Of a DNA stretch of 64,000 bases, positions 1,898 to 36,315 are shown piece after piece. Under the pieces are notes generated by a model, which ran no database searches, had not been told where the DNA came from, and was given only the letters and a program-made list of their open reading frames with translations. The position numbers and the translations under genes were made by a program. The first letter of the stretch is position 1. Every line of letters begins with the position of its first letter. Source of the stretch: a virus. Taxonomy: Duplodnaviria > Caudoviricetes. The stretch lies in the IMG/VR virus record IMGVR_UViG_3300030098_006079. One strand, given 5' to 3'.

Positions 1898-2169
1898 ATT
1901 TGAAGTGTATTTTTCTTAAAAAATTTTGTTACGTATTTGCTCTTATAAAGTAATGGATCATGATCTAGAAATAATCTAACTAAATCAAAATTACTCTCTA
2001 ATAATAAGCTATCTTTGAACAAATCTCTATACTTTTTTTTATTAAGAACAATTAAAAATACATTCGCCAAATTAATTTTTTTATTTTCACACATCGAGAC
2101 AAAACTACATAGAGTGAGAAATCTATGTTTTATATCTTTACGGTCTAAAATTGTATATGGATTATCCAT
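1894..2169 (-). CDS. Hypothetical protein (91 aa)
   Basis: Overlaps both neighbours in the operon; no motif recognised. Confidence 0.6.
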   Translation of the reverse strand: MDNPYTILDRKDIKHRFLTLCSFVSMCENKKINLANVFLIVLNKKKYRDLFKDSLLLESNFDLVRLFLDHDPLLYKSKYVTKFFKKNTLQI

Positions 2170-3058
2170 TTAAAGGTACAAATTTTTTGCTTAACGCTAA
2201 TACTGTCTCAGTTAATTCTCCACCTGCAGCATATTCATGACCTCCACCGTTACTAATAGTTTTAGCAAATTTGCCTAAATCTAATTCTACATTTGTATTC
2301 TTGCGATAATAAACCCGTTTACCGTTGAGGTTGATCAACATACATACGTCGCGATTAGTTTTATCAATAATATACTGCGCTACATCATTTATATATTCCT
2401 TTGCAAAAGCACTTACGAATTTATATTCTTTACCACCAATTGGTAATGTACATTCAAATAATTGTAACCCTTCTGCAAGTTTTTTAAATTTATAAAAATG
2501 ATAACTTATAATTTTGTTCTGCTCATTTGTAAAGCCATGAAAACCATGCTCAAAATCATTAATAAAATTTTGTAATTTATTACCATTTTTATACCAGAAT
2601 AAAAAGTTAAGTTTGTTGCTTTCAGGAAATTTTAATTCATAACAATCATAATCATTAACAAGAGCGATTAAATGTTTTTGCTCAGTTGTTAAATTACCTA
2701 GCGAACCTAATGTATTATAATATTTGTATATTAGTTTACTGCAGGAGGTTTCATTTACATCAATATAATACTCTGCATTTTTGTAAATTTCTTCTTTATG
2801 AGTCTTATGATGATCAAATATGCATACGTTTTTCTTATCTATTAAATCTTGTATTTCAGTAGTATCTAAGTCAAAGAAGTATACTTGTTTATAATCTTCA
2901 AGCTTGTTATTGTTAAGCCAACCTAAAAACTTCTCTCTCAAATTACTAACTTTAAGAGTAACTACTTTAGGCTTTTTTTGTTTAGCCCAGCAGTATACAA
3001 GATAACTACAACACCCGTCGATATCTAGGTCGGTAAAGATTATTTCATCTTTAGACAT
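2162..3058 (-). CDS. DHH/DHHA1 phosphoesterase (RecJ/NrnA-like)
   Basis: TDLDIDG (DxDxDG), FFDLD, DHH, VNDYD and C-terminal GGGHEYAAG motifs. Confidence 0.85.
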   Translation of the reverse strand: MSKDEIIFTDLDIDGCCSYLVYCWAKQKKPKVVTLKVSNLREKFLGWLNNNKLEDYKQVYFFDLDTTEIQDLIDKKNVCIFDHHKTHKEEIYKNAEYYIDVNETSCSKLIYKYYNTLGSLGNLTTEQKHLIALVNDYDCYELKFPESNKLNFLFWYKNGNKLQNFINDFEHGFHGFTNEQNKIISYHFYKFKKLAEGLQLFECTLPIGGKEYKFVSAFAKEYINDVAQYIIDKTNRDVCMLINLNGKRVYYRKNTNVELDLGKFAKTISNGGGHEYAAGGELTETVLALSKKFVPLNG

Positions 3059-3064
3059 TATGAT

Positions 3065-3070
3065 TATTTA
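3065..3070 (-). promoter_or_regulatory. Putative late promoter TAAATA
   Basis: TAAATA ends 6 nt before the DHH start codon. Confidence 0.4.
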
Positions 3071-4411
3071 CACCTCCCTCCCGAAATGTCCCGCTGACGT
3101 TTCTGCAGCCGATACATCTTCGTTAATATTAAGATCATTATTTTCAGATAATGTTAGAGTACTATAATCTATAGCCATTCTATTACTACCGGTATTTGAC
3201 CCAAAACGGTTTTTTATAATACCTATATGTAATGCATCTTCTTCTTCATCTTGCTCATTGCGCCATATACTAACTATTGCGTCAGCAGTAGCACCGAGCC
3301 CATAACTCTCACCTATACTCTCTAAACCAGGAGTAGTTGTATTACCATAACCAGTACGGTTAACCTGAGTAGCAGAAACAACTGGGCATTCAAACGTGTA
3401 CGACATAGCTCTTACTTGCTCAGATATACTTTTTACTCTTTCGTAGGAATTATTACCGTATGTACTCCCCATTAAATTAAGATAATCAAGTACAATTATA
3501 TCTGGTTTGAATCCTTTATTGCCTAACTTTTTAATAAAACCTTCTAATTGAGGTGGTGTAATTGAGTTAGGAGGGAACTCTTTAATTATCATATTAGCCC
3601 TAGGGCTTAACATTTTAAATTTAGTAACCTTTTCTTTTAACGTCTCAACATGGTCTTTTAAATGATTGATCGGTAAATTAGATATTCTTGATGTAATACG
3701 TTTACTATAAATCATCTCTGACATCTCTAAAGATACAACAAGTACATTCTTACCCTGTTCTGCAGCATTAGTTGCTACATTACTTAAAAATATTGATTTA
3801 CCAACATTTGTCGGACCAGCAAAAATATACATTGCACGACCGTTCTCTAAGAAACCACCATCCAATCGCTCATCTAACCATTTCCAACCAGTACGTATTT
3901 TTGTTTCCTTCGTAGTGATATCTTCAATATGCTTGTCGAGATCTTTAAAATAATCATGACCTACATTTGTGGTAATAGAGATATTGCAAGCTTTAGTAAA
4001 CTTATCGTGTATTACAGATACATCTCTTTCTTTACTATCAACAATGTCTAAAAATGTATTAAAGACTGCTTGTTCTTGCAAAAACTTTTCTGTGTATTTG
4101 TATAATACATCTTCATTAAAATCTATTTCTATTTCCGCAATAGACTTTTTGCATTTCAAATAATGATCTTTTAATTGATCAGTATTTAAATATAATTCTA
4201 ATTCCGTCTTTGATGGTCGTTGTTTATTCTTTTTATATAAAGCTTGAATTATTTTTATAATTTGTTTTATATCATTATTTTTAAAGAATTTATAATTTAA
4301 ACTATCTATGATAGAATTTAAATATATTTCATCTTCAAGCAGCTGCTTAAAAACAATTTTCTCTAAAAATTCAAGATCAACGTCGAGGTAGTTACTTTCG
4401 CTTGTTAGCAT
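3068..4411 (-). CDS. gp41: Replicative DnaB-like helicase
   Basis: Walker A FAGPTNVGKS, SLEMSE, Walker B IIVLDYL, SATQVNRTG, KNRFG. Confidence 0.92.
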   Translation of the reverse strand: MLTSESNYLDVDLEFLEKIVFKQLLEDEIYLNSIIDSLNYKFFKNNDIKQIIKIIQALYKKNKQRPSKTELELYLNTDQLKDHYLKCKKSIAEIEIDFNEDVLYKYTEKFLQEQAVFNTFLDIVDSKERDVSVIHDKFTKACNISITTNVGHDYFKDLDKHIEDITTKETKIRTGWKWLDERLDGGFLENGRAMYIFAGPTNVGKSIFLSNVATNAAEQGKNVLVVSLEMSEMIYSKRITSRISNLPINHLKDHVETLKEKVTKFKMLSPRANMIIKEFPPNSITPPQLEGFIKKLGNKGFKPDIIVLDYLNLMGSTYGNNSYERVKSISEQVRAMSYTFECPVVSATQVNRTGYGNTTTPGLESIGESYGLGATADAIVSIWRNEQDEEEDALHIGIIKNRFGSNTGSNRMAIDYSTLTLSENNDLNINEDVSAAETSAGHFGREV

Positions 4412-5096
4412 GTTTTACGAGAGTATTATAGAAGTACTCTTCTGATTTTCTATAGTCGTCAGTTATTTCGGTTAGGCCAGGTGATTCATGTATAACATGA
4501 ATAGGGGCTGTTGTTAGTTTTAAACCAGCAAGATGACAATCCAAACAAAATTTAATATCGTAGCAATGAAAACCTTTTAACTGCTCATCAAAACGTACGT
4601 CATGTAAAGCAATAGATTTAGTTCTTACCGCTAAAAATAAACCGTCTAGTAAAATTACATCTTTTGGAACATCACCAAATATAGTATATGCATAATCAGT
4701 TTTATTATAATAATGGGATACTACACCTGATAAAGTTTCTGGTTTACATAATAAATGCCATAAACATGGTTTTTTTATTTGTAGTTTACTACCACCAGCT
4801 AAACCTACTACATCATATCCATTTTTAAAAAAATTACGGATAGTCTGTAAGAAGTTAATACTATCAATTGTTATATCATCATGCACAAATAATATACAAT
4901 CATATTCTTTTAAATTCTCTTTTGTCAGATATTTGTTATACGTTGCGCATAATGGAGAGGTATTGTTATAAGTAGGTTGCAACGTATATGATACATTGGT
5001 TTGCTTTGACTTATGATTCTTTAGGCTATTAGCTAAACGAGAATTTTTAAATTCTTGTTCATTAAGCTTAGTAGCTGTTGCTATTAAAGTTTTCAT
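4392..5096 (-). CDS. GT-A-fold glycosyltransferase-like protein (Glyco_tranf_2_5-like)
   Basis: YNKYL, ILFVHDD, VVGLAG, LLDGLFLAV, FDEQLKGFHCYD, IHESPG. Confidence 0.75.
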   Translation of the reverse strand: MKTLIATATKLNEQEFKNSRLANSLKNHKSKQTNVSYTLQPTYNNTSPLCATYNKYLTKENLKEYDCILFVHDDITIDSINFLQTIRNFFKNGYDVVGLAGGSKLQIKKPCLWHLLCKPETLSGVVSHYYNKTDYAYTIFGDVPKDVILLDGLFLAVRTKSIALHDVRFDEQLKGFHCYDIKFCLDCHLAGLKLTTAPIHVIHESPGLTEITDDYRKSEEYFYNTLVKHANKRK

Positions 5097-5731
5097 AAAA
5101 AGAACGGTACGGAATTGAGCTTAAATTTACTTACTTCTTTAAATCTATTTGAAGTAAAGTTATATTCTAACACAGCCCCTTCGTCTATATATTTATATTC
5201 AGGCATAGCCGCAGACGTAAAGTTTCCGTCATTATAATGTAATGTACTGCCAGATCTAAATATACGTAAACTACCAGTTTTACTATTATAATACCAGCAG
5301 CCATATATACCTTCTAACATTTCTAGAGCTTGGGTAAATCCAACCTTTTCCATAAGAGGTAAAATGATACTACTATCTACGTCATTATAGTTTTCTAGTT
5401 TCATCTTATCAACTAAATCTCTATCATTTTCTAGTACACCATTGTGCGCTAAATAACGACCATTCATAGTAAATGGATGAGAAGTAGATAATTTAAAGTC
5501 TCTTTCCTTTGATGTAGGAGACTGTACGTGACCGAGATAATAAATACAAAACGGATTCTCGGTAATAGGTTTTGTAAAGTCTAATTCGTGTGTTGTTTTT
5601 ACTAAAGTATTACTTTGTAATCCTTGCGGGAATAGATACGTTACACTACGTACAAAATTACCCCTCTCTGTATTTTTTTCACAGAGTTTTCTAAATGTCT
5701 CTATATTATTTGATCCAAAAATTCCACACAT
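5093..5731 (-). CDS. Class II (Ntn) glutamine amidotransferase-like protein
   Basis: N-terminal MCGIFG, RG, GHVQSPT (canonical GHxRxAT), HPF, HNG, DS. Confidence 0.8.
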   Translation of the reverse strand: MCGIFGSNNIETFRKLCEKNTERGNFVRSVTYLFPQGLQSNTLVKTTHELDFTKPITENPFCIYYLGHVQSPTSKERDFKLSTSHPFTMNGRYLAHNGVLENDRDLVDKMKLENYNDVDSSIILPLMEKVGFTQALEMLEGIYGCWYYNSKTGSLRIFRSGSTLHYNDGNFTSAAMPEYKYIDEGAVLEYNFTSNRFKEVSKFKLNSVPFFL

Positions 5732-5746
5732 AATTTTATATTTTAT

Positions 5747-6442
5747 TTAAACTACTTTCCAAGGTATATCATCTCGCTCATACTCTATTGGGTCAACGAG
5801 ACCATTTTGTAAGAACCCTTGTATACGAGAACTACATGCTGTACAATAACCGCATGCCTTTTCTCTTCCCTCATAACAAGTCCAAGTATCCTCAAATTTT
5901 ACATTATTGACTACACCAGTTTTAATAATTTCTTGCTTTGATAACTTAATTAAAGGTGCTTCTATTTTAATTTTTGTTTTTCTATTCAAAGCAGTTACAT
6001 TATTAATCTCTGTAAGAAACTCTTTACTACCGTCCCAATAACCTGCTTGACTATCTACAAGCGCCGATCCATGATATACAGTCTCTGCTCCTACAGCTTC
6101 TGCATATGCTGATGCAATTGATAACAACATCATATTGCGGAACGGAACATAATTTACTGTTTGTGCATCTCCTAATACATCTCGCGCATGCGCTACTTTA
6201 ATATTATTATTTGTTAATGCAGATGTTGTTGCAAGATCTTTAAAGAAGGTAAGATCAATAATCTTATGCTCTTCAATATTATCATAATTATCAGTTTGCA
6301 TACCAGCATATAACATTTCTTTTATATGCTTTTGACCGTAATCGAAAGTTATTGCATAAATGTCGTCATGAACACTTGCTGCTAAACTTAAAATTACTGA
6401 ACTATCTAAACCACCTGAAATAGGTACTACTGCTTTACTCAT
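5747..6442 (-). CDS. queC: 7-cyano-7-deazaguanine synthase QueC (divergent)
   Basis: SGGLDS PP-loop, FDYGQKH, YVPFRN, zinc motif TCY...CGYCTAC. Confidence 0.92.
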   Translation of the reverse strand: MSKAVVPISGGLDSSVILSLAASVHDDIYAITFDYGQKHIKEMLYAGMQTDNYDNIEEHKIIDLTFFKDLATTSALTNNNIKVAHARDVLGDAQTVNYVPFRNMMLLSIASAYAEAVGAETVYHGSALVDSQAGYWDGSKEFLTEINNVTALNRKTKIKIEAPLIKLSKQEIIKTGVVNNVKFEDTWTCYEGREKACGYCTACSSRIQGFLQNGLVDPIEYERDDIPWKVV

Positions 6443-7523
6443 CGTCTTGTTCTAATATAGCTAATTCATCGAGTGACTTACCATAACGGTACTTTTCACT
6501 TATAGAAGATTCTAATTTAGGCAGCACATTACTCCACGTTTCTTCGTCATTGCGCCAATTTTTGTAATAACCTAATTTTTTCTCTCCCATACTATACGTC
6601 GAACCATTTTGTTGTATAATACCATGAGATACTGCAATATCTTTTAGACCAGAATATTTTTCTAGACCAGTCTTAAAATTAAGATATGCTTCTCCTTGCA
6701 AGAAAGCAGGTATAAATCTATTTTTTACTGTGAGCATTCGAAGAGTAACGCCAGAATAGTTACGACTTTCAGTTAATGCCTCGTCGTTTGTATTACCAGC
6801 ATCAGTTTTCTCTTTCTTAGCTGCCATTTGTACTAGTATAGACGCCATGTATACAGGCCCAGACCCACCAGCTTGTTGCTTAACTAAGGTAGGATGGAGT
6901 GCACCAGGGTCAGCGTACGTATGATTACTTGCAATTACAGTTGTACCAGTAACAGCTGCTTTATAAGTAATAATACGCATCATGGATTTAAGCTGCTTGG
7001 CTCTAAGCCCCATATCCATGGCGCCTTTATTAGCACCAGCATCGTTTATTTCCTTCTCCGACGCTAAATTACCGAGAGAGTCAATAGAAATAATGAACTT
7101 ACCATGTAGTTCGGGTTCTTTTTCTACTTCATCTAAGAACGCCATGATCTGGTTACGACAACTTTCTACTGTATCTACTGGAACATATTTTACATTAGAC
7201 GTATCAAGACCGACATTCTCAGCTCCCTCGTTTTCTACTGCTACCTCTGTATCAAAGATAACAGGTACCATGCCTTTGCGTTGAGCATGAGCTAAAATTT
7301 TATTTAAAATAAAGGTTTTACCACAACCAGAATCTCCTGCAAAAATAGTAATTCTACCTTTAGGTACTCCACCGTATAAGGAACCAGAAAGAATAGAATT
7401 TAACACTAAACAACCAGTATCAATCCATTCGGTTACATTACTGAGAGTATTTTTTTCTAAAGTAGTAGCGTTACTATTTAGTTTTTGCAGTTTAGCAAAT
7501 GCTTTATCAACGAGATTAGACAT
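6435..7523 (-). CDS. uvsX: RecA-like recombinase UvsX
   Basis: IDTGCLVLN.ILSG...GG.P.GRI, AGDSGCGKT, FDTE, IDSLGNL, GGSG. Confidence 0.9.
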   Translation of the reverse strand: MSNLVDKAFAKLQKLNSNATTLEKNTLSNVTEWIDTGCLVLNSILSGSLYGGVPKGRITIFAGDSGCGKTFILNKILAHAQRKGMVPVIFDTEVAVENEGAENVGLDTSNVKYVPVDTVESCRNQIMAFLDEVEKEPELHGKFIISIDSLGNLASEKEINDAGANKGAMDMGLRAKQLKSMMRIITYKAAVTGTTVIASNHTYADPGALHPTLVKQQAGGSGPVYMASILVQMAAKKEKTDAGNTNDEALTESRNYSGVTLRMLTVKNRFIPAFLQGEAYLNFKTGLEKYSGLKDIAVSHGIIQQNGSTYSMGEKKLGYYKNWRNDEETWSNVLPKLESSISEKYRYGKSLDELAILEQDDE

Positions 7524-10553: not shown

Positions 10554-10582
10554 AGTATAGGGTATTTTCATGAATTAATCAA
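10554..10582 (-). promoter_or_regulatory. sigma70-like promoter of gp43, apparently leaderless
   Basis: TTGATT-N17-TATACT-N7-GTG. Confidence 0.55.
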
Positions 10583-11826
10583 CTAATACCATTTTGGAGA
10601 TTTAATAATTTGCGCTCTGGAGCGGCATATGAGTATGAATAAAGCTCTTTGTAATAATCAATATTATCTTCCATCCATCTTTTATTCATATACTCTCGAG
10701 CTCTTTTACATTCTTTGACATATTTTTTATGGTCTTGAGTTAGGTATTTTATTTTATCGATCAAGTCATCTCCAGTTTTAAATTTATGAAAAGCATTCTT
10801 ATAAGTTTCCTGATCCTGACAAATAGACGGGATACCATAAGCACATGCCTCAATAAATTTTAAATCACTTTTTGCGTTATTAAAATTGCTATCCTCAAGA
10901 GGAGCGTAAAATAATGTTGCGTTTAAAGTACTAACAAATCGAGGGTAATCTACTAAAGTAGACCATTCATGAAATTCAATCTTGCCAGCTTTAATTAAAT
11001 CTCTCAATGATAGTGGAAACCCACCAACAAACACCCATTGTATGTCGTCGACAGATTTACGGATTGCATCAATAACATGATAGAAATCATCTTTTTGTTT
11101 TATTCTGTTTTCTATATCAAAATGTGCACCACTACCACAATAAACCACTCGCGGCTTTCTTTTATTTTTTTGATAATTTTCTTTTATTTCATTTAAATTA
11201 TAGTATCGGTCCATCCAAAAACGTGGAATAAAATTAGGTATAACTGTTATGTGTTTATTACCAGTTTTCTCCGTGTAGTATTGTTTCATGAAATTATTTG
11301 TTACTGTGATCTCATCACACAGCTGCATAATTTCCATACTAGTTCTTCTTATCTCTGGGTCTTCAAACGCAAATCTAAATTTATTGTAATGAGGGATATC
11401 CTCTTTGAATATTAAATCGTCAATTTCATATATTATATTAAAACCAAATTCTTTTTTTACCTCAGATAACCATTGTATATATTTTAACTGTTGATCTGTA
11501 GCTTGTCTTTGTATCCTGACTGTTTTTAAACCTTTATAAAAGTTTTTATCTCCAATCATTACAGTACCGCCTTGTACATTTGCTTTACCATAACAATTCA
11601 ACAATAGTTCTGGCCAAATCATTCTCCAATGACCACACCCAGAATAGTCAGCGTAGAAATTTACACCGCGAGGTAGATCTGGAGTTTCATGACCCGTCTT
11701 TTTTAATGTATCTTTATAATTTAACCTGTTTATGTTATGTAAAGCATTTCCTGGGGTTGTAGGAGTAGGTATTACTGGTGAAGTAAACGGTAATCTTTGC
11801 GTTGTGTTATTAAACGGAGTAAGCAT
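10579..11826 (-). CDS. GT-B (GT4-like) glycosyltransferase
   Basis: ADYSGCGHWR, IYEIDD, ITVT, VIPN, FYAPLEDSNFNNAKSDLKFIEACAYGIP. Confidence 0.8.
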   Translation of the reverse strand: MLTPFNNTTQRLPFTSPVIPTPTTPGNALHNINRLNYKDTLKKTGHETPDLPRGVNFYADYSGCGHWRMIWPELLLNCYGKANVQGGTVMIGDKNFYKGLKTVRIQRQATDQQLKYIQWLSEVKKEFGFNIIYEIDDLIFKEDIPHYNKFRFAFEDPEIRRTSMEIMQLCDEITVTNNFMKQYYTEKTGNKHITVIPNFIPRFWMDRYYNLNEIKENYQKNKRKPRVVYCGSGAHFDIENRIKQKDDFYHVIDAIRKSVDDIQWVFVGGFPLSLRDLIKAGKIEFHEWSTLVDYPRFVSTLNATLFYAPLEDSNFNNAKSDLKFIEACAYGIPSICQDQETYKNAFHKFKTGDDLIDKIKYLTQDHKKYVKECKRAREYMNKRWMEDNIDYYKELYSYSYAAPERKLLNLQNGIS

Positions 11827-18666: not shown

Positions 18667-19794
18667 ATGAGTAGGTTCACTTCCAGAATAGATGAAATGA
18701 TAGGCAAAAAGCCTAAAGATAATAATCAGGCTGATATTGACCGTATTGAGAAGGAAGTAGATGACGGCTTAACTAACGATCCTGTTAAAAAACGGATTGC
18801 TCAAAAAGCAAAGCAAAAAAGACAAGACCTTTTAAAATCTTTAGATGAAGCCGAAGGAGATGAATTTGTCCCACGTCAAGGACCTGAAACAGGTGGTGAA
18901 TTCAAACCAAAATCTAAAGATGATTTAGCCCAAGAACCGGCTGAAGAGCCAACACCCGATCCAATGACTACGGAAGGTGAAACATTTTACGTTAATCTTG
19001 CTCGTAAAGCACTATTCGTAGATTTAGACAATGTGAGCCTTACTGATACAGAGAGAGAAACAGTTACACGTGACGTTGAACCTAATAACGCAAAGGAAGT
19101 CGCTAAAATTCTTCGTAAAATTGTTGTTGATTATGGTTTAAGTGAAAATTTTGATTCTAAAATTAATAATGTATGGGAAGACTTGGAGTTAAAAGATTTA
19201 CGTAGTAAACTTTCTTTAGAGTTAAAAAAAAACGATAAAGTAGTTGTATTAGTACCGGGTAGTTTTAAACCTCCTCATAAAGGCCATTACGAAATGGTAA
19301 AAACATATAGTCAGATGTATCCATCTGGTCATGTACATGTTTTAATTTCAGCTCCTTCAGCTAAAAGTGAACGAAGAACTAAAGATGGTAAATTAATAAC
19401 TCCCGCTGCTGCAAAGCAAATATTTGAGCTTTATGTTCAGCCGTTAAATAATGTTACAGTTAGTATTTCAGAATATCCATCACCAGTTACTGCTGCGTAT
19501 GAGACACTTAAAACTCTCGATGATGGTACAACTGCTGTATTAGGAGCTAGTAGAAAAGATGGAGATTGGAAAAGATGGTCATACGCACAACCGTGGGCTG
19601 AAAAAGAAGGTTTAGATATTGAGATTGTTGAACCAGAAGAGTCTGCAGTAGACGTAACTCTAAAAGCAGATGGTACACCTTACAGTGCGAGTAATATTCG
19701 AGATAATTTTGACGATTTCGAAAAAATAAAGGCTGACATACCGGAGCATGTCAGCCCTGAGGCTGTTAAACAAGTATTTGATTCTTTATCTTAA
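18667..19794 (+). CDS. HxGH-type nucleotidyltransferase (cytidyltransferase-like) with long charged N-terminal region
   Basis: PGSFKPPHKGH and C-terminal SASNIR; the N-terminal ~190 aa are acidic/basic with no catalytic motif. Confidence 0.75.
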   Translation: MSRFTSRIDEMIGKKPKDNNQADIDRIEKEVDDGLTNDPVKKRIAQKAKQKRQDLLKSLDEAEGDEFVPRQGPETGGEFKPKSKDDLAQEPAEEPTPDPMTTEGETFYVNLARKALFVDLDNVSLTDTERETVTRDVEPNNAKEVAKILRKIVVDYGLSENFDSKINNVWEDLELKDLRSKLSLELKKNDKVVVLVPGSFKPPHKGHYEMVKTYSQMYPSGHVHVLISAPSAKSERRTKDGKLITPAAAKQIFELYVQPLNNVTVSISEYPSPVTAAYETLKTLDDGTTAVLGASRKDGDWKRWSYAQPWAEKEGLDIEIVEPEESAVDVTLKADGTPYSASNIRDNFDDFEKIKADIPEHVSPEAVKQVFDSLS

Positions 19795-20421
19795 GTCTCT
19801 TATAAAGTCGTAAAACTCTTGTCTTGTTAAATCTGTTTTATCTAAAAACGCACCAGACATTCTTGCCGTCTTCATAATACTATCATGCTTTACTCCTCGA
19901 AGACCAGCACAAGTATGATTAGCTGATACTAAAACAGCAACACCTTTATTATCTTTACATACTTCATTCATATAGTTATGAATTTGCATAGTTAGATTTT
20001 CCTGGACTTGAGGTCTTCTAGAAAACCATTCAACAATTCGGTTAATTTTACTTAAACCAATCACCTTACCATCTTTACCAGGAATATATGACACATGAGC
20101 TTGACCAATAAAAGGTAAATGATGATGGGAACAAAAAGAATTAACTTTAATGTTACCTTGAAATACTAACCCGTCATATTTATCAACATTATCAAATGCT
20201 GTGATCTTAGGGGGTAAGCTATAACAACCCTCTGCTAAATCATTCACAAAAGCTTTTGCTACTCTTCGAGGAGTATCAGCACTATTAGGATCATTTCGCC
20301 AATCAAACCCTAAAGCATCCATATACTTCTCATACGCAGCTGCAGCTTTTTCAATTATCGCCTCTTTTTCATCTTCTGTTCGGGGTAAGTTACCGTTTGC
20401 ATATTGCAGTAATTCACTCAT
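19786..20421 (-). CDS. folE: GTP cyclohydrolase I
   Basis: TPRRVAK, SFCSHHHLPF, GLSKINR, RRPQVQE, HTCAGLRG. Confidence 0.95.
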   Translation of the reverse strand: MSELLQYANGNLPRTEDEKEAIIEKAAAAYEKYMDALGFDWRNDPNSADTPRRVAKAFVNDLAEGCYSLPPKITAFDNVDKYDGLVFQGNIKVNSFCSHHHLPFIGQAHVSYIPGKDGKVIGLSKINRIVEWFSRRPQVQENLTMQIHNYMNEVCKDNKGVAVLVSANHTCAGLRGVKHDSIMKTARMSGAFLDKTDLTRQEFYDFIRDLR

Positions 20422-20492: not shown

Positions 20493-20984
20493 ATGTTTAG
20501 TAGTACTAAGATAATTGAACTTGGGAGTTGTGCATTTCGGCAACCTCAAGCAACATCGCATTGTCGGTTCGTGCACGGATATCGTTTGATTGGTAAGTTT
20601 TGGTTTGGTGCTAATGAATTAGATGAAAATAATTGGGTTGTGGATTTTGGAGGTCTTAAGGACCTTAAGAAGAAATTAGAAGATCATTTTGATCATACAA
20701 CTGTTATTGCTGATAATGATCCTGCTTTAGATTCTTTTCGAAAACTTCATGAGGAGGGTATTGTAGATTTACGTATCATGCAAGGAGGAGTCGGTATTGA
20801 GAAGTTTGCTGAGTTTTGCTTTAAAACTGCTGATAAGTATGTAAAGGAATTGACAAATAGGCGTTGTTTTGCGAGTCGTGTAGAGGTATTCGAGCATGAG
20901 AAAAACTCTGCTATTTATGAGGATAAATATAATATAATGTCTTGGGCTAACGAGCAAAACGCAAAAATAAATAGAGGACACTAA
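20493..20984 (+). CDS. queD: 6-carboxy-5,6,7,8-tetrahydropterin synthase
   Basis: HCRFVHGY, VVDFGGLK, FDHT, EKFA, VEVFEHEKNS T-fold motifs; next to folE and queE. Confidence 0.88.
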   Translation: MFSSTKIIELGSCAFRQPQATSHCRFVHGYRLIGKFWFGANELDENNWVVDFGGLKDLKKKLEDHFDHTTVIADNDPALDSFRKLHEEGIVDLRIMQGGVGIEKFAEFCFKTADKYVKELTNRRCFASRVEVFEHEKNSAIYEDKYNIMSWANEQNAKINRGH

Positions 20985-20985
20985 T

Positions 20986-21120
20986 ATGGGTAAAGGTAGT
21001 AAACGCCGAAAGGAAGATACTAGCAAAATCACGGACAACTGGGATAATATTGATTGGGGTAAACCTAAGAAAAAAGAGGTTAAACCAGAGACTAGAGATA
21101 TTAAAGATATATTTAAATGA
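20986..21120 (+). CDS. Small basic hypothetical protein (44 aa; absent from the ORF track)
   Basis: MGKGSKRRKEDTSKITDNWDNIDWGKPKKK...; exactly fills the queD-queE gap, and its stop overlaps the queE start (ATGA). Confidence 0.7.
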   Translation: MGKGSKRRKEDTSKITDNWDNIDWGKPKKKEVKPETRDIKDIFK

Positions 21121-21884
21121 CAGATATAGATAACTACAAACAAGATCTTAGTGAGCAAAGAATATTTTTATCTGACGATAAAGTGTTCTATACAGTAGAG
21201 GGAGAAGGTGAATATGTAGGGTGGCCCTCTGTTTTTATGAGATTGTCAATGTGTAATCTTACATGTCAGGGGTTCGCCTCAGAAGATTCTCCTCATGGGT
21301 GTGATAGTTATGTATCATGGAGTATAAAAAATAAACTTACGTTTGAGGAATTAAAAACTCTTTTAGAAGAAGATGGTTATAAAGACAATATGGACAATGG
21401 CGCTATATGGAAAATTACTGGAGGAGAACCGTTAGTCCAACAATCAAGATTACTTAAGTTTGTATCATATGTAGATATAGAATGGGGGTATGTACCTAGA
21501 ATAGACTTTGAAACTAATGCTACTATTCAACCTAATGAAGAATGGTTAAGGCATGGCGCTACATTTACTACTTCTCCTAAGCTTAGTAATAATGGAGATC
21601 CGGTAGAGCGAAGATATAAACCTGAGGTGCTTAAATGGCATGTCAGTAATGGGTCTGGTTTTAAGTTTGTTATTAGTAAGAAAGAAGATTTAGATGAGGT
21701 ATTAGAAAAGTATGTTAATGAATTTAATATACCTAGAGATAGAGTATGGTTAATGCCTTGTGCTGGTAGCAGAGCAGAACATATTGAAATCGCCGAAGAA
21801 ATAGCAGAGTTTGCAAAGCAACAATACTTTAAATTTAGTCCTCGTCTACATTTACTAGTATGGGACATGGCATTAAAGGTATGA
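21117..21884 (+). CDS. queE: 7-carboxy-7-deazaguanine synthase (radical SAM)
   Basis: TVEGEG..VG.PSVF.RL..CNLTC...CDS, ITGGEP, FETN, SPK, KFV, LMP, PRLH. Confidence 0.9.
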   Translation: MTDIDNYKQDLSEQRIFLSDDKVFYTVEGEGEYVGWPSVFMRLSMCNLTCQGFASEDSPHGCDSYVSWSIKNKLTFEELKTLLEEDGYKDNMDNGAIWKITGGEPLVQQSRLLKFVSYVDIEWGYVPRIDFETNATIQPNEEWLRHGATFTTSPKLSNNGDPVERRYKPEVLKWHVSNGSGFKFVISKKEDLDEVLEKYVNEFNIPRDRVWLMPCAGSRAEHIEIAEEIAEFAKQQYFKFSPRLHLLVWDMALKV

Positions 21885-24060: not shown

Positions 24061-24855
24061 GTGAATAAGGTTAAAATTGTATCTGGTTGGTCAAATAGAG
24101 GTGGTTCGACCACTGCATTTATTAATTTAACTAACGCATTAAATAAAAGCAACATTGATTGTACATTCTACGGACCGCATACGTGGCATTTAGAAAAATG
24201 TAAATCTGGTTTATTAAAAAATTGCGCAGTTAGTAGTTGTGATAATTTAATTGTTCATTTTCTATCACCACCGAGCAGACCTGCCGCGGCTCGGGTTATT
24301 TTAGCTTGTCATGAAAAAAATCTATTTGAAGTTTCCAAAATAAAACCATTTTGGGATGAAGTTGTCTTTATTAACAAAAAACAACAACAATACCATAGTA
24401 AGTATACAGGTAAATACAATATTATACCTAACTTAACAGAAGAACTTAAAGCTAACCCAAAACCTAATGATAATATAGTTGGTATTATTGGTTCGATTGA
24501 TGAAAATAAGCAAACACATGTTTCTATTGAAAGAGCTATAAAAGATAATAGCTCAAAAGTATATTTGTTCGGTACTATTAATGATCCTAACTATTATAAT
24601 AATTATGTCAAGCCATTATTATCAGATAAAGTAATACATTATGGTTATTTGGAAAATAAACAACAAATGTATGATATGATTGATAAAGTCTATCTTTCTT
24701 CCCTGAGTGAGTGTGCTTCTTTAGTAAAAGATGAATGTAGAACTACTAATACAGCGTTTTGCGGTAATTCTGCAGTAGAAAACGATTCAGAGACGTTAAC
24801 TAATGATATTATTCTTGAGCGGTGGAAAAAAATATTAAATTATAACTGTCAATGA
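24061..24855 (+). CDS. GT-B (GT4-like) glycosyltransferase
   Basis: SGWSNRGGSTTA, IIPN, GIIGSIDENKQ, SSLSECASLV. Confidence 0.7.
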   Translation: MNKVKIVSGWSNRGGSTTAFINLTNALNKSNIDCTFYGPHTWHLEKCKSGLLKNCAVSSCDNLIVHFLSPPSRPAAARVILACHEKNLFEVSKIKPFWDEVVFINKKQQQYHSKYTGKYNIIPNLTEELKANPKPNDNIVGIIGSIDENKQTHVSIERAIKDNSSKVYLFGTINDPNYYNNYVKPLLSDKVIHYGYLENKQQMYDMIDKVYLSSLSECASLVKDECRTTNTAFCGNSAVENDSETLTNDIILERWKKILNYNCQ

Positions 24856-25520
24856 TTATAGGTAACGGTTTAATCGCAAAATCTTTCGAGAATTACAATT
24901 TAGATTGTATTCTTTTTGCTTCCGGTGTATCTTCCTCAAAGGAAAGAAATAGAGATAATTTTCTTAGAGAAGTTAATTTATTGAAAGAGACAATCAGTAA
25001 TTATCCAGATAAAAAAATTGTTTACTTTAGTACGATTATGAGTACTGTTGACAGTAGTTATTATTGTACTCATAAGTTTTTTCAAGAAAAATATGTTAGT
25101 AAACACGCAAAAAACTACATTATTTTTAGATTACCCCAAGTTATTGGACCAGGTGGTAATACAAACAATATTTTTAACTATATAAAAAATAAAGCATATA
25201 ATAATGAACCTATAGATGTATTTCATAGTATAAAAAGGTCGTTAATTGATGTTATCGACGTCGCGAAAATTGTTAACTATTGTGTTAATAAACAAAATCG
25301 TCAAACTATTAACATAGTAGGTATAGAGGAAAAGTATGTTTCAAATATTGCTCATCTAATAACTAAAAAAATTAACTCTACATCTCATATTAATGTTATA
25401 AAAAGACATGTTTGTAAAAATCACAAATACAAAAACTGTGAAATAGTTGATTTAGCGATAAAAGATACTACAATTGATACTAACAACTACACGGAGAGAA
25501 TTATTAGTAAGTATATATGA
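24852..25520 (+). CDS. NAD-dependent epimerase/dehydratase-like protein
   Basis: IIGNGLIA, FASGVS, YFST, Y..HK, FRLPQVIG. Confidence 0.75.
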   Translation: MIIGNGLIAKSFENYNLDCILFASGVSSSKERNRDNFLREVNLLKETISNYPDKKIVYFSTIMSTVDSSYYCTHKFFQEKYVSKHAKNYIIFRLPQVIGPGGNTNNIFNYIKNKAYNNEPIDVFHSIKRSLIDVIDVAKIVNYCVNKQNRQTINIVGIEEKYVSNIAHLITKKINSTSHINVIKRHVCKNHKYKNCEIVDLAIKDTTIDTNNYTERIISKYI

Positions 25521-26233
25521 AAATTTTAATGGGTTTCTACAATGCTGAAAAGTATATCCAAAGGAGTATACTATCAGTTATGTCTCAGAATTTTAAAGAC
25601 TATAAATGTTATATTACTAGTGATAAATCTACCGATAATTCTGTAGATTTAGTTAATCAGATAATTAAAAACGATGAGAGATTTGAACTAGTAGAGGATA
25701 CAGATATAAAGCTTTATCAAACTGGTAATTTCGATCGTAATATTCGTAATAACAAAGAGATAGATGATAACGAAGTTTTAGTTGAAGTCGATGGTGATGA
25801 TTTCTTACCAGACGTAAATGTATTAGATCGTATTAATAATGTTTATAAAGACCCTAACGTGTGGATAGCGAATGGAAGCTTCCAATATGCAAATAGTTCA
25901 CCAGGATTTTCACAAGCACAGACAGACTTTGATAATTTACGTGCTAGTAGGTTTACTGCCTCTCATATTCGTACATGGCGTGCCTTTTTGTGGCGTAATA
26001 TTAAACCAGAAGATTTGCGCGATGAAAATGGAGACTATTGGCAGTGGAGCGGAGACTTGTGCTTTATGTTTCCTATGTTAGAAATGTCTGGTCCTGAACA
26101 TTATAAATTTATGAAAGACATAAACTACATTTATAATGAGGATAATATTATAAACGAACATAAAGTTGATATGTCAATGGTAAACGATCACGCATCTAAA
26201 ATAAGAAGTAAGAAAAAATATGATAGGCTGTAA
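25517..26233 (+). CDS. GT2 family glycosyltransferase
   Basis: YNAEKYI.RSI.SV..Q, DKSTD, VDGDDFL. Confidence 0.8.
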   Translation: MKILMGFYNAEKYIQRSILSVMSQNFKDYKCYITSDKSTDNSVDLVNQIIKNDERFELVEDTDIKLYQTGNFDRNIRNNKEIDDNEVLVEVDGDDFLPDVNVLDRINNVYKDPNVWIANGSFQYANSSPGFSQAQTDFDNLRASRFTASHIRTWRAFLWRNIKPEDLRDENGDYWQWSGDLCFMFPMLEMSGPEHYKFMKDINYIYNEDNIINEHKVDMSMVNDHASKIRSKKKYDRL

Positions 26234-26981
26234 TTTACAAGGTGGTTTAGGCAATCAAATGTTTCAAATAGCTGCTGCAACTGCATTAGCTTTAAGGAAT
26301 AATGACACCGCTGGTTTTGATCTTACTAACTGTCATACACCTCTTCAAGGTAATCCTTCTTTTTTCTACAAAACAAATATTTTTCGTAATATTAACGATA
26401 TACAAAATTATAATTTTAAACATTTATATACTGAACCAACTTATAGTTATAAAGACATAAAATATTATCCCGATCTATGCTTACAAGGTTTTTTTCAGAG
26501 TGAAAAATATTTTAATGATTGTAAAAGTGATATAAAAAAATTATTCTCCTTACCTGAGGAAATAATCAATATCGTAAAAAATGAATTTGACTATAAAAAC
26601 ACTACTGCTGTACATATAAGGAGAGGGGACTATGTTAATAAACAAAACTTTCATCCTGTATGTGATATTAATTATTACAAAAAAGCTGCAAGCTTAGTCA
26701 CAGGAAGCAAATTACTTTTTATATCTGATGATATAAATTGGGTTAAAAAATATTTTCAAGGTAGTAGAGTTTTATATTCCCCGTATAAAGAAGAAATATT
26801 AGATTTTGTGCTAATGTTATTATGTAAAAATGTTATTATAGCTAATAGTACGTTTAGCTGGTGGGGAGCATATTTGAATTTTAATAAAGATAAGCATATA
26901 ATAGCACCAATGAGTTGGTTTGGACCTAATGGGCCTAAAGACACACAAGACATTATACCCGACAACTGGACACAACTTTAA
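26220..26981 (+). CDS. GT11 alpha-1,2-fucosyltransferase-like
   Basis: GGLGNQMFQ, GFFQSEKYF, VHIRRGDY, FISDD, NSTFSWWGAYL. Confidence 0.9.
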   Translation: MIGCNLQGGLGNQMFQIAAATALALRNNDTAGFDLTNCHTPLQGNPSFFYKTNIFRNINDIQNYNFKHLYTEPTYSYKDIKYYPDLCLQGFFQSEKYFNDCKSDIKKLFSLPEEIINIVKNEFDYKNTTAVHIRRGDYVNKQNFHPVCDINYYKKAASLVTGSKLLFISDDINWVKKYFQGSRVLYSPYKEEILDFVLMLLCKNVIIANSTFSWWGAYLNFNKDKHIIAPMSWFGPNGPKDTQDIIPDNWTQL

Positions 26982-26983
26982 GA

Positions 26984-28285
26984 ATGAAACAATTAGACGA
27001 AATCTTACAAGATCTTACTGAATATATAGAAGTCCATAAACCAAAGTATTTGTATAATACAGACTTTATACCTGGTCATAGTTCGGTTTATTATTCTGGT
27101 CCGTTTTGGGATACAAAAGAGATTTTAGCTGGTATAAATACATTTATTTCAGGTAAATGGGTTGTCGCAGGAGAGACAGTATATAAATTTGAAAAAACAT
27201 TTGCAAAGTATTTTGACACTAAGCACGCTCATATGGTTAACTCCGGTAGTTCTGCTAATCTTGTTTTAGTATCTGCATTAAAGAAAAGATATAACTGGCA
27301 AGATGGTGATGAAGTTATAGTTTCTCCTGTCGGTTTTCCTACTACTATATCTGTATTGGTACAAAATAACTTAAAACCAGTTTTTGTAGATATAGAGTAC
27401 GATACTCTTAATTTTGATATTACTAAAATTGAAGAGAAAATTACAGATAAAACTAAAAGTATATTTGTTTCGCCAGTTTTAGCTAATCCGCCTGATATGG
27501 ATTACTTAACTGAATTATGTGATAAACATAATTTAAAATTAATTGGTGATAGTTGTGATAGTATAGGAACAAAATGGAATAATAAACCTCTTTCACATTA
27601 CTATACCGCGTGGTCATCATCGTTTTATCCTGCTCATCATATTTCTACTGGTGAAGGAGGTATGGTTTGTACGAATGACGATGAATTAAAAAAATTATTT
27701 GTTAGTTTTTCATGGTGGGGTAGAGATTGTTATTGTATAGGACCTGCTAATTTATTAGCATGTGGAAGTTGTGGGAATAGATTCGATAAATGGCTAGAAG
27801 ATTATGATGGTATTATAGATCATAAATATGTTTTTAATAATATGGGTTATAATCTTAAACCTTTAGATCTACAGGGCGCTATAGGTTTAGAACAAATGAA
27901 GAAGTTCGATATTATAGATGAGAAAAGAAAGAATAGTAAGAAAAATATCGAAAGTATTTTATTGAAATATGTAAACGATTTGTCTGGTGTAAAAACTTTA
28001 GATAAAGCTGATCCTTGTTGGTTTGGTACACCGTTTATTTGTAAAGATAAATCTTTGAAAGATAAGCTTATAACCTTTTTAGAAGACAACAAAATACAAA
28101 CTAGAAATTACTTCGCTGGTAATATATTATTACATCCAGGATATAAACACTTAGGTAATCTTGAAGAATATCCTAATGCGAATCAAGTGTTAGATAAAGT
28201 ATTCTTCTTAGGAGCAGCACCACATTACACCTCCGAAGTATTTGATTATATTGATAGAGTTTTTCGCGACAAATGGGTAAATTAA
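26984..28285 (+). CDS. rfbH: RfbH/DdhC-like CDP-4-keto-6-deoxyglucose 3-dehydratase (DegT/DnrJ/EryC1/StrS family)
   Basis: VNSGSSANL, SFYPAHHISTGEGG (His at the usual PLP-Lys position), WGRDCYC...CG Cys motif, GYNLKP, TRNYFAGN. Confidence 0.85.
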   Translation: MKQLDEILQDLTEYIEVHKPKYLYNTDFIPGHSSVYYSGPFWDTKEILAGINTFISGKWVVAGETVYKFEKTFAKYFDTKHAHMVNSGSSANLVLVSALKKRYNWQDGDEVIVSPVGFPTTISVLVQNNLKPVFVDIEYDTLNFDITKIEEKITDKTKSIFVSPVLANPPDMDYLTELCDKHNLKLIGDSCDSIGTKWNNKPLSHYYTAWSSSFYPAHHISTGEGGMVCTNDDELKKLFVSFSWWGRDCYCIGPANLLACGSCGNRFDKWLEDYDGIIDHKYVFNNMGYNLKPLDLQGAIGLEQMKKFDIIDEKRKNSKKNIESILLKYVNDLSGVKTLDKADPCWFGTPFICKDKSLKDKLITFLEDNKIQTRNYFAGNILLHPGYKHLGNLEEYPNANQVLDKVFFLGAAPHYTSEVFDYIDRVFRDKWVN

Positions 28286-29658
28286 ATATAGTTGTTTTAG
28301 GTGACGGTTTATTAGGTAGTGAGATAGTTAAACAAACTAACTGGGACTATTTATCTCGTAAAAAAGATAATATTAATTTTACAGATACAGATAGTTATTT
28401 TCATTTACTTAAAAAGTATAAAGTTATATTAAATTGTATAGCATGTACTGACACATATTCAGATAATAAAGAACTACATTATAATGTTAACTATAGGTAT
28501 GTCGTTAAGTTAGCGAGATATTGTGAAATTCATAATAAAAAACTAATACATATTTCAACTGATCATGTTTACTCTAAAAATACTAACATACCATCTGAAG
28601 AAGATATACCGCATTATGCTAATAATTGGTATTCATATACAAAATTATTAGGAGATAACGCCGTACAAGTAGAAAGCGATAATAATTTAGTTATACGATG
28701 TACTCATAAACCTACACCATTCCCATATAATAAAGCATGGGTAGATCAGGTAGGTAATTTTGATTATGTAGATGTCATTTCAGGCTTAATTATTAAAGCT
28801 ATTAATAAACAACTTACTGGTTTATATAATATAGGTACAGAACAAAAATCCATGTACGAATTAGCATCAAAGACCGCGACTGTAAGCAAATCATATACTC
28901 CGAAGCATGTACCTAAAAATGTAAGTATGAATATTAGTAAATTTAATAATGATATAAAAACATCATTTTTTTCTATCGCTATACCTACTTATGAAATGAA
29001 TGGGTATGGTAGAGAATTCTTAGAACATAGTTTTAAAATTTTATATAGTCAGACATTTAAAGACTTTGAAGTAGTAATATCTGATCATAGTCTAGACGAT
29101 CGGATAAAGGATTTATGTAAAGAATACAGTAAGCTGCTTAACGTTAGATATTTAAGAAACACTTATAAAAGAGGTGGGTCCTCTCCTAATATAAATAACG
29201 CTATAAAAAATTGTACTGGAAAATGGATCAAAATATTATACCAAGATGATTTTTTATATAAAAATACAGCTTTAGAAAAATTAACAAACCATATAATAGA
29301 TAATAAAGATAAAGTTTGGATTGTATCTGCCTGTGAGCATACGAACGATGGTTCCACCATGTATCGTCCGTTTTATCCAAAATGGAATCAGTATATGCAT
29401 TTAGGTAACAATACATTTAGTAGCCCTAGTGTTCTCACACTTAAAAATATAAAAGATAAGTTATATTTTAATGAGGATTTAATTTGGTTAATGGATGTCG
29501 AATATTATAAACGGATGTACGATATATATGGCGAGCCATCATATTTACATCAAGTAAATATAGTTAACAGAACGTGGTCGGGTAGTGTGACTGATACGTT
29601 GTCTCCAGAGCGTAAACAAAGTGAAGTAAATTTAATGAGAAAAACTTACATATGTTAA
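28273..29658 (+). CDS. Fusion of RmlD-like sugar reductase and GT2 glycosyltransferase
   Basis: N-half LGDGLLG, HISTDHVY, YSYTK; C-half SIAIPTYE, ISDHS, ILYQDDF. Confidence 0.8.
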   Translation: MGKLNIVVLGDGLLGSEIVKQTNWDYLSRKKDNINFTDTDSYFHLLKKYKVILNCIACTDTYSDNKELHYNVNYRYVVKLARYCEIHNKKLIHISTDHVYSKNTNIPSEEDIPHYANNWYSYTKLLGDNAVQVESDNNLVIRCTHKPTPFPYNKAWVDQVGNFDYVDVISGLIIKAINKQLTGLYNIGTEQKSMYELASKTATVSKSYTPKHVPKNVSMNISKFNNDIKTSFFSIAIPTYEMNGYGREFLEHSFKILYSQTFKDFEVVISDHSLDDRIKDLCKEYSKLLNVRYLRNTYKRGGSSPNINNAIKNCTGKWIKILYQDDFLYKNTALEKLTNHIIDNKDKVWIVSACEHTNDGSTMYRPFYPKWNQYMHLGNNTFSSPSVLTLKNIKDKLYFNEDLIWLMDVEYYKRMYDIYGEPSYLHQVNIVNRTWSGSVTDTLSPERKQSEVNLMRKTYIC

Positions 29659-30377
29659 AATTAAAAAATATTACATTAGTGTTAATGAGTTCGGTTAAGA
29701 TTAGCCAGAGTATACAGGCTTTAGAGTATAGTTCAAAAGATATTGAATTCGGTGCTGTAAAATTAATTAGTGATATTAAACCTACTACATTACCTAACGG
29801 TATTACTCATGAACATATTGATAGAATACATGATATAGACTCATGGAATTATAGTATTATATACAAATTAGGAAATTACATTAATACTGAGTTTGCTATA
29901 CTTATACATGATGATGGTTATATTGTTAACGCTGATTCATGGCGAGACGAATTTTTAAATTATGATTATATTGGCGCACCATGGCCTTTACCACAAGACA
30001 ATTTTTCATTTAGAGACAAAAACAATAAACTTATACGGGTAGGTAATAGTGTTTCGTTGCGCAGTAAAAAATTAATTGATTTACCTAATAAATTAAATTT
30101 ACCATGGAGAGATTTTCATGGTTATTACAATGAAGATGGTTTTATATGTACTGGTTATAGACATATATATGAAGAACATGGTATGAAATATGCCGATATA
30201 GATGTTGCTAAATATTTCTCTCATGAAACCCCAATACCAGAAATTGAAGGAATCGAGCCTTTTGCATTTCATCGTCAACGATTAGGTAGAAATAATAGAT
30301 ACCCAGTTTTTACTAGTAAGCCTTTAGAGGTTAATAAATCAACACCTTTATTATATGAAAATAGATTTGGTAATTAG
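29652..30377 (+). CDS. DUF5672-like glycosyltransferase-associated protein
   Basis: IHDDG, YDYIGAPW, VGNSVSLRSK, NED, AKYFSHE, FAFH. Confidence 0.7.
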   Translation: MLKLKNITLVLMSSVKISQSIQALEYSSKDIEFGAVKLISDIKPTTLPNGITHEHIDRIHDIDSWNYSIIYKLGNYINTEFAILIHDDGYIVNADSWRDEFLNYDYIGAPWPLPQDNFSFRDKNNKLIRVGNSVSLRSKKLIDLPNKLNLPWRDFHGYYNEDGFICTGYRHIYEEHGMKYADIDVAKYFSHETPIPEIEGIEPFAFHRQRLGRNNRYPVFTSKPLEVNKSTPLLYENRFGN

Positions 30378-31026
30378 TCTTTTTGATAAAGATATATCTT
30401 GGCTAAAAGATATAACTAATAAAAATGTTTACCCTGTTATATATCGTAAGGGAGATATAGCTACCCATGAGCAAGAAATAGTAATTGAACCAAATGTTGG
30501 TCGAGACGTACATACATTTTTTTATCATATTTTGCATAATTATGATAAGCTAGCAGATGTAACTTTTTTTGTACAGGATTATCCATTTGATCATTGGGGA
30601 GATTTGATAGAGATTTTAAACAGTGAGACATGGGAAGAAAAGGCTACTCTAAAAAATGGTGGTTATTATGGTTTCCATAACAATACTCTTGGTACAGCAT
30701 GGAGCACTCCAATACAAGGTTGGTTAGACACCAATCAACATGGAAGTGGTAAGGTATTAGTTTGTAATAATGATGGTTCGCCTCAAGATTTAGTCAATAA
30801 TATTGACGTAAATGAATATTGGAGTAAGTATTTTACGAATAATCCACCGTCAGTATATGAATTTATGCCTGGCGGTCATTTTGGTGTAACTAAAGAACAA
30901 GTGAGATTAAGACCTAAAGAGTTTTATGAAAGAATTGTACAGGATTTAGCGACAATAGATAATATGCCATGGATTATTGAACGGTTAGAGTGTTATATTT
31001 TTAGTAATTTATATGATAACAACTGA
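30355..31026 (+). CDS. DUF3431-like protein
   Basis: ISWL, IYRKG, PNVGRD.HT, FVQDYPFDH, WIIERL. Confidence 0.7.
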   Translation: MKIDLVISLFDKDISWLKDITNKNVYPVIYRKGDIATHEQEIVIEPNVGRDVHTFFYHILHNYDKLADVTFFVQDYPFDHWGDLIEILNSETWEEKATLKNGGYYGFHNNTLGTAWSTPIQGWLDTNQHGSGKVLVCNNDGSPQDLVNNIDVNEYWSKYFTNNPPSVYEFMPGGHFGVTKEQVRLRPKEFYERIVQDLATIDNMPWIIERLECYIFSNLYDNN

Positions 31027-31858: not shown

Positions 31859-31860
31859 TT

Positions 31861-36294: not shown

Positions 36295-36315
36295 TAAATA
36301 TATTTTATACCATAT

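Follow-up and report, generated by a model that had tools for sequence, protein, structure and literature searches.

A separate gene for a class II glutamine amidotransferase (GAT) follows queC in an uncultured marine T4-like phage, and the two genes quite probably encode a glutamine-dependent synthase of 7-cyano-7-deazaguanine (preQ0) that serves a preQ1-type, probably formyl-preQ1, modification of the phage DNA. The phage is represented by a stretch of 64,000 nucleotides (the window; IMG/VR record IMGVR_UViG_3300030098_006079). Between its genes for a UvsX-like recombinase and a DnaB/gp41-like replicative helicase lie three consecutive open reading frames (ORFs) for QueC, the GAT and a glycosyltransferase of the GT-A fold (GT; Table 1). 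The explanation that we prefer for this locus, to which we assign a probability of roughly 0.6, is that a two-gene preQ0 synthase and a lineage-specific GT form one inherited block. A preliminary description of the window had given the three ORFs the same coordinates and placement between uvsX and gp41 as our ORF calls, and its gene identities were confirmed by Pfam and PHROG profile matches.

The arrangement QueC-GAT-GT was found again in all 45 related viral contigs that were retrieved with the GAT, and the grouping is not a chance adjacency. Relatives are numerous in IMG/VR and include a complete genome of 200,819 bp with terminal repeats (G001). The block is carried by a large clade of T4-like phages that are uncultured and come from the sea and from fresh water. 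UvsX of the window is at most 33% identical to that of any deposited phage, with the best matches in T4-like phages of Pelagibacter, Synechococcus and Ochrobactrum, and a blastn search of cultured phages with the triad yielded zero nucleotide matches.

Judged by its sequence, the QueC of the triad is a canonical pathway enzyme and not a defence-type paralogue. It scored above the curated cut-offs of the equivalog model TIGR00364 (165 bits; cut-off: 150.3) and of PF06508 (194 bits; cut-off: 22), and among solved structures it matched QueC (PDB 2pg3, 7e-30) far more strongly than Cap9 of CBASS (9nto, 2.7e-5). The PP-loop motif SGGLDS is present at residues 9-14, and Cys189, 197, 200 and 203 align with the zinc-site cysteines of solved QueC. 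The canonical SGYPDCR motif is replaced by AGYWDGS at residues 133-139. In the preliminary description this motif, together with GHVQSPT at residues 67-73 of the GAT, was taken to mean that both enzymes are atypical. Both motifs are indeed there, but GYWD in QueC and Gln in the GAT are usual in their families and not special to this locus. When phage QueCs from groups of known DNA chemistry were aligned, GYWD occurred in every QueC of large T4-like phages: as YGYWDCT in the KVP40 group, YSYWDTT in pf16, YGYWDTS in Vibrio phage 2.275.O, SGYWDCT in a freshwater clade and AG[YF]WDGS in the window and its relatives. SGYPDCR or near variants were carried by the Seuratvirus dPreQ0 synthase, phi38:2, HVTV-1, a CP220-group Campylobacter phage and a Rosebush-group mycobacteriophage, and the fused Gat-QueC of phage 9g has AYPDNE. 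Since GYWD is common to the QueCs of the KVP40 group, pf16 and 2.275.O, we regard it as a subfamily signature. The DNA of phi-Grn1 and phi-ST2, both of the KVP40 group, contains dPreQ1 and mdPreQ1 and no dG+, the nucleoside of the amidine base G+ (dG+ = 0; PMC10516641). The GYWD variant thus does not conflict with a functional pathway, to which host QueC could contribute in those phages.

The window also encodes FolE, QueD and a QueE-like protein (Table 1). QueF, the DpdN formyltransferase and DpdA3 were not found inside the 64 kb. In the complete relative, an operon consists of an ORF of 272 aa that lacks a Pfam match, a DpdN-like formyltransferase gene (PF00551), an ORF of 116 aa, an AAA_28 kinase gene and a gene for two-domain QueF. 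PF06508 matched once in this genome and once in each of four partial relatives. With one QueC and an otherwise complete pathway, the QueC of the triad would be the sole source of preQ0.

The GAT belongs to a family of proteins that are nearly all 200-235 aa long and stand-alone (369 clusters at E <1e-10 in a profile search of 1.8 billion representatives). Its profile matched the N-domains of GlmS (1e-16) and PurF, and the hallmarks of class II enzymes that align to GlmS are present, namely a Cys after the initiator Met, the Asn-Gly of the oxyanion hole and an Asp for the amino group of the substrate. Among 130 full-length relatives, Cys2, Arg23-Gly24, His68, Pro72-Thr73, His85-Pro86, Asn97-Gly98 and Asp119 are invariant. 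In the profile alignment Gln70 takes the place of Arg73 of GlmS, the residue that binds the glutamine carboxylate. Position 70 is Gln in 94 of the relatives and Arg in 36, and an Arg seven residues further downstream is found in 66 of the 94 Gln-type proteins versus 5 of the 36 Arg-type proteins. This pattern, counted over related sequences and not over independent events, suggests that the carboxylate-binding Arg has moved (to Arg77 in the window) and is not lost. The state of position 70 was also considered as a tracker of GT presence and rejected, as both types occur with a GT: Gln-type GATs accompany a GT in the window, L104 and L117-L121 and occur without one in pf16 and 2.275.O, and Arg-type GATs accompany a GT in L106, L107 and L109. 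An Arg-type representative used as query retrieved zero viral loci. The C-terminal quarter of the protein (residues 160-212; 5096-5254, minus strand) lies outside the Pfam match, yet is conserved in the family, with Arg159, Ser162, Ser173 and a terminal Pro-Phe-Phe in this region; a partner might dock onto this part of the surface.

In the proposed sequence of reactions, FolE, QueD and QueE of the phage would make 7-carboxy-7-deazaguanine (CDG), the substrate of QueC. QueC would activate it with ATP, amidate it and dehydrate the amide to the nitrile preQ0. The GAT would act as the glutaminase subunit of QueC, its N-terminal Cys splitting glutamine and the ammonia being passed to QueC, with which we infer a direct contact. 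QueF would convert preQ0 into a preQ1-type base, predicted to be formyl-preQ1, which would be put into DNA via genes elsewhere in the genome. The GT would be a third, lineage-specific member of the block and a soluble nucleotide-sugar transferase. A supply of ammonia by the GAT is the simplest reading because asparagine synthetase B (AsnB) combines a class II GAT with a PP-loop synthetase by the same domain logic: ammonia released by an N-terminal nucleophile (Ntn) glutaminase is used by an ATP-pyrophosphatase to amidate a carboxylate that has been adenylated. Weak direct matches to AsnB were seen for both proteins (Asn_synthase to QueC; asn_synth_AEB to the GAT). However, AsnB is a single chain with a solved ammonia tunnel, whereas the phage would use two chains whose contact is hypothetical; a complex prediction for QueC and GAT scored 0.02, which counts neither for nor against binding.

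The Gat-QueC of 9g (AHN84522) and those of Crenarchaeota, which form dG+ or G+, likewise join a class II GAT with N-terminal Cys to a QueC PP-loop domain. The 9g fusion protein works in a queC-deleted host and, together with DpdA, gives dG+ in DNA (PMC6884629). Its ability to replace QueC is consistent with ammonia supply by the GAT. The GAT of the window and the Gat domain of 9g are homologous (hhalign: 96%, E 4e-9). The systems differ in that 9g has one polypeptide and the window phage two ORFs, with a stop codon and 15 nt between them. Identity between the QueC of the window and the QueC half of the 9g protein is only 30%, and the 9g Gat keeps the Arg. Moreover, 9g makes dG+ and lacks QueF, whereas QueF and the DpdN-like gene of the window clade point to preQ1-type bases. 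The predicted pathway and end product are shared with the DpdA3/DpdN system for formyl-preQ1 in DNA (fdPreQ1): FolE, QueD, QueE and QueC are encoded in the window, and QueF, formyltransferase and kinase in the complete relative. Unlike in that system, at least three separate genome regions contribute to the pathway of the window phage, and the GAT, the GT and a DUF366 protein are extra. By tblastn, no homologue of the GT or the GAT was found in any Flavobacterium phage record.

QueC-GAT pairs are also present in cultured phages. In KVP40 the gene order is FolE, DpdA2, QueF, QueC (KVP40.0124) and KVP40.0125. The last gene overlaps queC by ATGA and encodes a protein with the same motifs that is homologous to the GAT over its full length (25% identity). 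The arrangement is as in KVP40 in phi-Grn1 (phi-Grn1_0236/0237) and in the D490 group. Vibrio phage 2.275.O has the order QueF-YhhQ-QueC-'nucleophile aminohydrolase'-FolE (AUS03053/AUS03054 being QueC and GAT), and Pseudomonas phage pf16 the order FolE-gp80-QueF-QueC-GAT-MazG-like-PolB (QueC and GAT being gp78 and gp77). The stand-alone GATs that come immediately after QueC in KVP40 (L128:4214-4822, KVP40.0125), phi-Grn1 (L132:3831-4439, phiGrn1_0237), pf16 (L114:4001-4639, gp77) and 2.275.O (L001:8001-8615) are unannotated or 'hypothetical'. The QueCs of the Schizotequatrovirus phages KVP40 and phi-Grn1, of pf16 and of 2.275.O belong to the GYWD subfamily, as in the window phage. Their GATs are full length, 23-29% identical to that of the window and equal in catalytic residues. 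Like the window phage they are T4-like, with queC and gat adjacent or overlapping, often by ATGA, and QueF is encoded in their genomes. In contrast to it, these phages have neither the PF13712 GT nor DUF366, and their pair lies inside the deazaguanine operon and not in the replication module. They use DpdA2 according to the table in PMC6884629, in whose supplementary table the pathway proteins of pf16 and of 2.275.O appear without the GATs.

We conclude that the QueC-GAT pair is most likely an ordinary yet overlooked two-piece form of a known step. A separate predicted glutaminase beside QueC is widespread in T4-like phages, including KVP40 and pf16, and has been omitted from published pathway tables. 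It probably frees preQ0 synthesis of the phage from free ammonium, which would suit nitrogen-poor water.

The GT is the part of the block for which cultured phages offer no counterpart. It scored 59 bits against PF13712 (cut-off: 27), and its structure model (pLDDT 94.7) is that of a small soluble GT-A protein with GT-A fold matches at E 1e-11. A set of 30 diverse homologues keeps a DxD-type metal/nucleotide motif, His72-Asp73-Asp74, without variation. In fold, the GT is nearest to majastridin (PDB 2qgi), StrF and WbbL; searches of the PDB, the Swiss-Prot models and viral models gave generic GT-A matches, those in the viral library being only proteins of uncultured phages. StrF, from the streptomycin cluster, and majastridin resemble the GT in fold and size, are soluble and have a DxD-type motif, but they are 15-17% identical to it, their own acceptors are poorly defined and they have no link to deazapurines. 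A tree grouped the phage GTs in a single clade separate from their bacterial relatives, and the phage GTs are more basic [median isoelectric point (pI) 8.3 vs 6.2]. Searching cultured phages by tblastn revealed no homologue, and a literature search on PF13712 returned only mentions in lipooligosaccharide loci.

The genes of the block are tightly packed. uvsX and queC overlap by 8 nt, queC and gat are 15 nt apart, gat and gt overlap by ATGA, and gt and the helicase gene overlap by 20 nt. In the window's own clade, the GAT gene is directly upstream of the GT gene in 83 of the 83 loci with room for both (58 distinct GT sequences), and the helicase follows the GT in 87 of 87. Distant T4-like lineages keep the order QueC-GAT-GT-helicase with at most one small ORF between QueC and GAT and one between GAT and GT, at identities of 35-45% (GT), 31-38% (GAT) and 46-49% (helicase). 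The synteny survey thus found the GT co-conserved with queC and gat; a lack of such co-conservation was among the outcomes that the preliminary description had named as counting against its idea.

In a further lineage (L105-L110) the context is different: ThyX, one ORF, QueC, GAT, two small ORFs, GT and DUF366. The genes that follow DUF366 there resemble, by ORF sizes only, those that follow DUF366 in the window; hence the position of the whole block relative to DUF366 has changed in one piece. Between L106 and the window, identity is 59% for DUF366, 47% for QueC, 40% for the GT and 29% for the GAT. GT and DUF366 are both present in all five long relatives. DUF366 was absent from KVP40, pf16, 2.275.O, D490 and 9g, and the GT from the first four of these. 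Among cultured phages, tblastn found DUF366 in one only, Microcystis phage MaAM05, and a literature search on DUF366, PF04017 and COG2029 gave nothing usable.

Several observations weigh against the preferred explanation. The canonical glutamine-binding Arg is absent from the aligned position of the GAT, and the GAT is no closer to the Gat domain of 9g than to GlmS, so that the argument from the fusion protein is valid only at the level of the domain family. For stand-alone GATs of this family, the glutaminase role is one that we infer from conserved residues. With respect to the GT, its gene lies away from queC and gat, 4.7 kb from queF, in one subclade that is sister to that of the window and the sole exception among the subclades sampled. 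Gene order changes little in T4-like replication modules, so most of the adjacencies do not count as independent and come down to about two independent contexts and one separation. Within 15 kb, a glycan island of the window encodes at least seven further glycosyltransferases, and in a genome so rich in them one more GT is weak evidence by itself. The nearest bacterial relatives of the GT (34% identity) are located in flagellin-glycosylation islands, and no cultured deazaguanine phage has the GT.

For the QueC-GAT pair, we weighed two other functions. As a split Gat-QueC, the pair could turn preQ0 into the amidine G+, the archaeosine base, so that the DNA would contain dG+. The product of the 9g enzyme and its homology to the GAT speak for this reading, which we nevertheless consider very unlikely. 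QueF, which needs the nitrile preQ0, accompanies every split QueC-GAT pair examined, and the DNA of phi-Grn1, a phage with the pair, is free of dG+; a separate GAT next to QueC should therefore not serve as a dG+ marker. In addition, the QueC of the window is of another subfamily than the QueC half of 9g (GYWDGS vs AYPDNE). The second function, suggested in the preliminary description, is that the QueC-like protein attaches deazaguanine to a protein N-terminus in the manner of Cap9 or QatC, possibly to that of the GAT. Apart from the weak Cap9 match, a PADLOC model for CBASS QueC matched, over residues 80-206 only. These matches are outweighed by the far stronger ones to canonical QueC, including the equivalog score, and the genome, which needs a QueC, has no other. 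A partner scan of the neighbours, from which two adjoining ORFs (1894-2169 and 10579-11826) were left out, revealed no CD-NTase, Cap10 or QatA/B/D; the neighbours that gave matches are replication genes, namely those for gp32, a DHH phosphoesterase, the helicase, UvsX and PolB. In Ntn enzymes the N-terminal Cys is the catalytic nucleophile. Deazaguanylation of the GAT N-terminus would thus inactivate the enzyme, and we regard protein deazaguanylation here as extremely improbable.

Whether the GT has any functional tie to the deazaguanine pathway is a closer question, and we place such a tie somewhat below an even chance. The GT could be unrelated to deazaguanine, acting on a protein or glycan acceptor of the phage or host and standing beside the GAT through inherited gene order. 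This is a serious alternative, though we lean against it. It is favoured by the glycan island (24-39 kb), which holds GT2, GT8, GT11 and GT17 genes as well as sugar enzymes, by the flagellin-island relatives and by the KVP40-type phages, in which QueC-GAT works without a GT. Three relatives carry a GT8 gene as an insertion between uvsX and queC (L031:5580-6368, L032, L046), indicating that glycosyltransferase genes with no relation to the triad can settle at this site. On the other hand, the adjacency of gat and gt persists while GMP reductase-like, GT8 and small ORFs turn over nearby, and the block was kept after relocation to another context. The opposite proposal, in outline the main idea of the preliminary description, that the GT, perhaps with DUF366, adds a sugar to the 7-deazaguanine of phage DNA or to its precursor, for instance at the aminomethyl nitrogen of preQ1, would make the block the genetic signature of an undescribed base. 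We consider it unlikely. The ATGA coupling of gat and gt in all 83 loci, with the order kept in distant subclades, argues for it, as do the joint relocation next to DUF366, the finding that the phage GT clade was seen only in phages with deazaguanine genes, and the joint presence of GT and DUF366 in this clade and absence from the cultured QueC-GAT phages. Two weaker points are the basic pI of the phage GTs and the absence of ThyA-family hydroxymethylase and ThyX genes from the complete relative. With neither gene there, a hydroxymethyl-pyrimidine acceptor is not expected, and we rejected a T4-style glucosylation of hydroxymethyl-pyrimidine. However, formyl-preQ1, the predicted end product given the formyltransferase of the relatives, lacks an evident free acceptor, and in the fdPreQ1 reference phage the base is made without a GT of this kind. 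The generic fold matches, the many other GTs of the genome and the detachment of the GT in one subclade also speak against a sugar on the base, and our literature search found no paper on glycosylated deazaguanine in DNA.

What the preferred explanation of a two-gene preQ0 synthase with a lineage-specific GT leaves unexplained is a phage-specific GT-A clade and DUF366 that accompany deazaguanine genes in abundant uncultured phages but in none that has been studied. If these proteins modify the base, they would represent a new class in phage DNA chemistry. If they do not, a position in the replication module has carried unrelated accessory genes over the long term.

Table 1. Features of the window that are discussed in the text
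Feature	Position	Strand	Evidence and remarks
GT-A glycosyltransferase	4392-5096	minus	234 aa; PF13712 (Glyco_tranf_2_5) 7e-16
Stand-alone class II (Ntn) glutamine amidotransferase (GAT)	5093-5731	minus	212 aa; GATase_6 3e-9, GATase_7 1e-5, phrog_12378 ('unknown function')
QueC (7-cyano-7-deazaguanine synthase), GYWD subfamily	5747-6442	minus	231 aa; PF06508 2e-57
UvsX-like recombinase, upstream flank, overlapping queC start	6435-7523	minus	phrog_97 3e-58; RecA 4e-16
DnaB/gp41-like replicative helicase, downstream flank, overlapping GT end	3068-4411	minus	phrog_19 8e-80; DnaB_C 3e-29
FolE (GTP cyclohydrolase I), first pathway step	19786-20421	minus	PF01227 8.5e-47; tblastn with 9g and 2.275.O FolE
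QueD (CPH4 synthase)	20493-20984	plus	PF01242 2e-16
QueE-like radical SAM protein (CDG synthase)	21117-21884	plus	tblastn with 9g QueE 9e-15; Fer4_12 weak, 1e-3
DUF366 protein	50255-50842	plus	PF04017 5e-21; directly beside GT in second genomic context

Accessory genes turn over among uvsX, queC and gat and rarely between gat and gt. The most frequent of those recorded is a gene for a GMP reductase-like protein of 318 aa between queC and gat, which was present in about 31 of the 45 GAT loci and in G001-G005 (for example L021:7042-7998). It matched PF00478 (3e-59), and its best NCBIfam model was GMP reductase, with a score under the cut-off. The gene is absent at this site from the window's own subclade and from the whole window. 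In toyocamycin biosynthesis, a 7-deazaguanine nucleotide is the substrate of ToyE, a GMP reductase homologue, so the phage protein could deplete GMP or have deazaguanine nucleotides as substrates. ORFs of 85-87 aa beside the GT in other lineages were considered as a conserved fourth member of the block and rejected; those of different lineages are not related to each other, and the window has none.

The wider neighbourhood of the block contains the DHH phosphoesterase and gp32 genes on one side and the gene for family B DNA polymerase (PolB) on the other. The DHH/DHHA1 phosphoesterase gene (2162-3058, minus strand) directly follows that of the gp41-like helicase, and a DHH-family gene occupies the equivalent position in the distant relatives L108 and L130. 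The glycan island extends from 24061 to 39738 and encodes three GT2 proteins, GT11, GT17, GT8, a DegT/StrS aminotransferase and an RmlD-GT2 fusion, as well as two GDP-mannose-dehydratase-like epimerases, a CMP-sugar-type cytidylyltransferase, DUF5672 and DUF3431. At its edge, an ORF of 190 aa (39743-40315, minus strand) gave a weak Pkinase match (6e-5, under the cut-off). Directly after the QueE gene, the segment 21860-23045 (plus strand) encodes a cytidylyltransferase-like protein (PF01467, 1.5e-22) together with an AAA_28 kinase (1.8e-12), a NadR-like pair that possibly serves NAD salvage or nucleotide handling.

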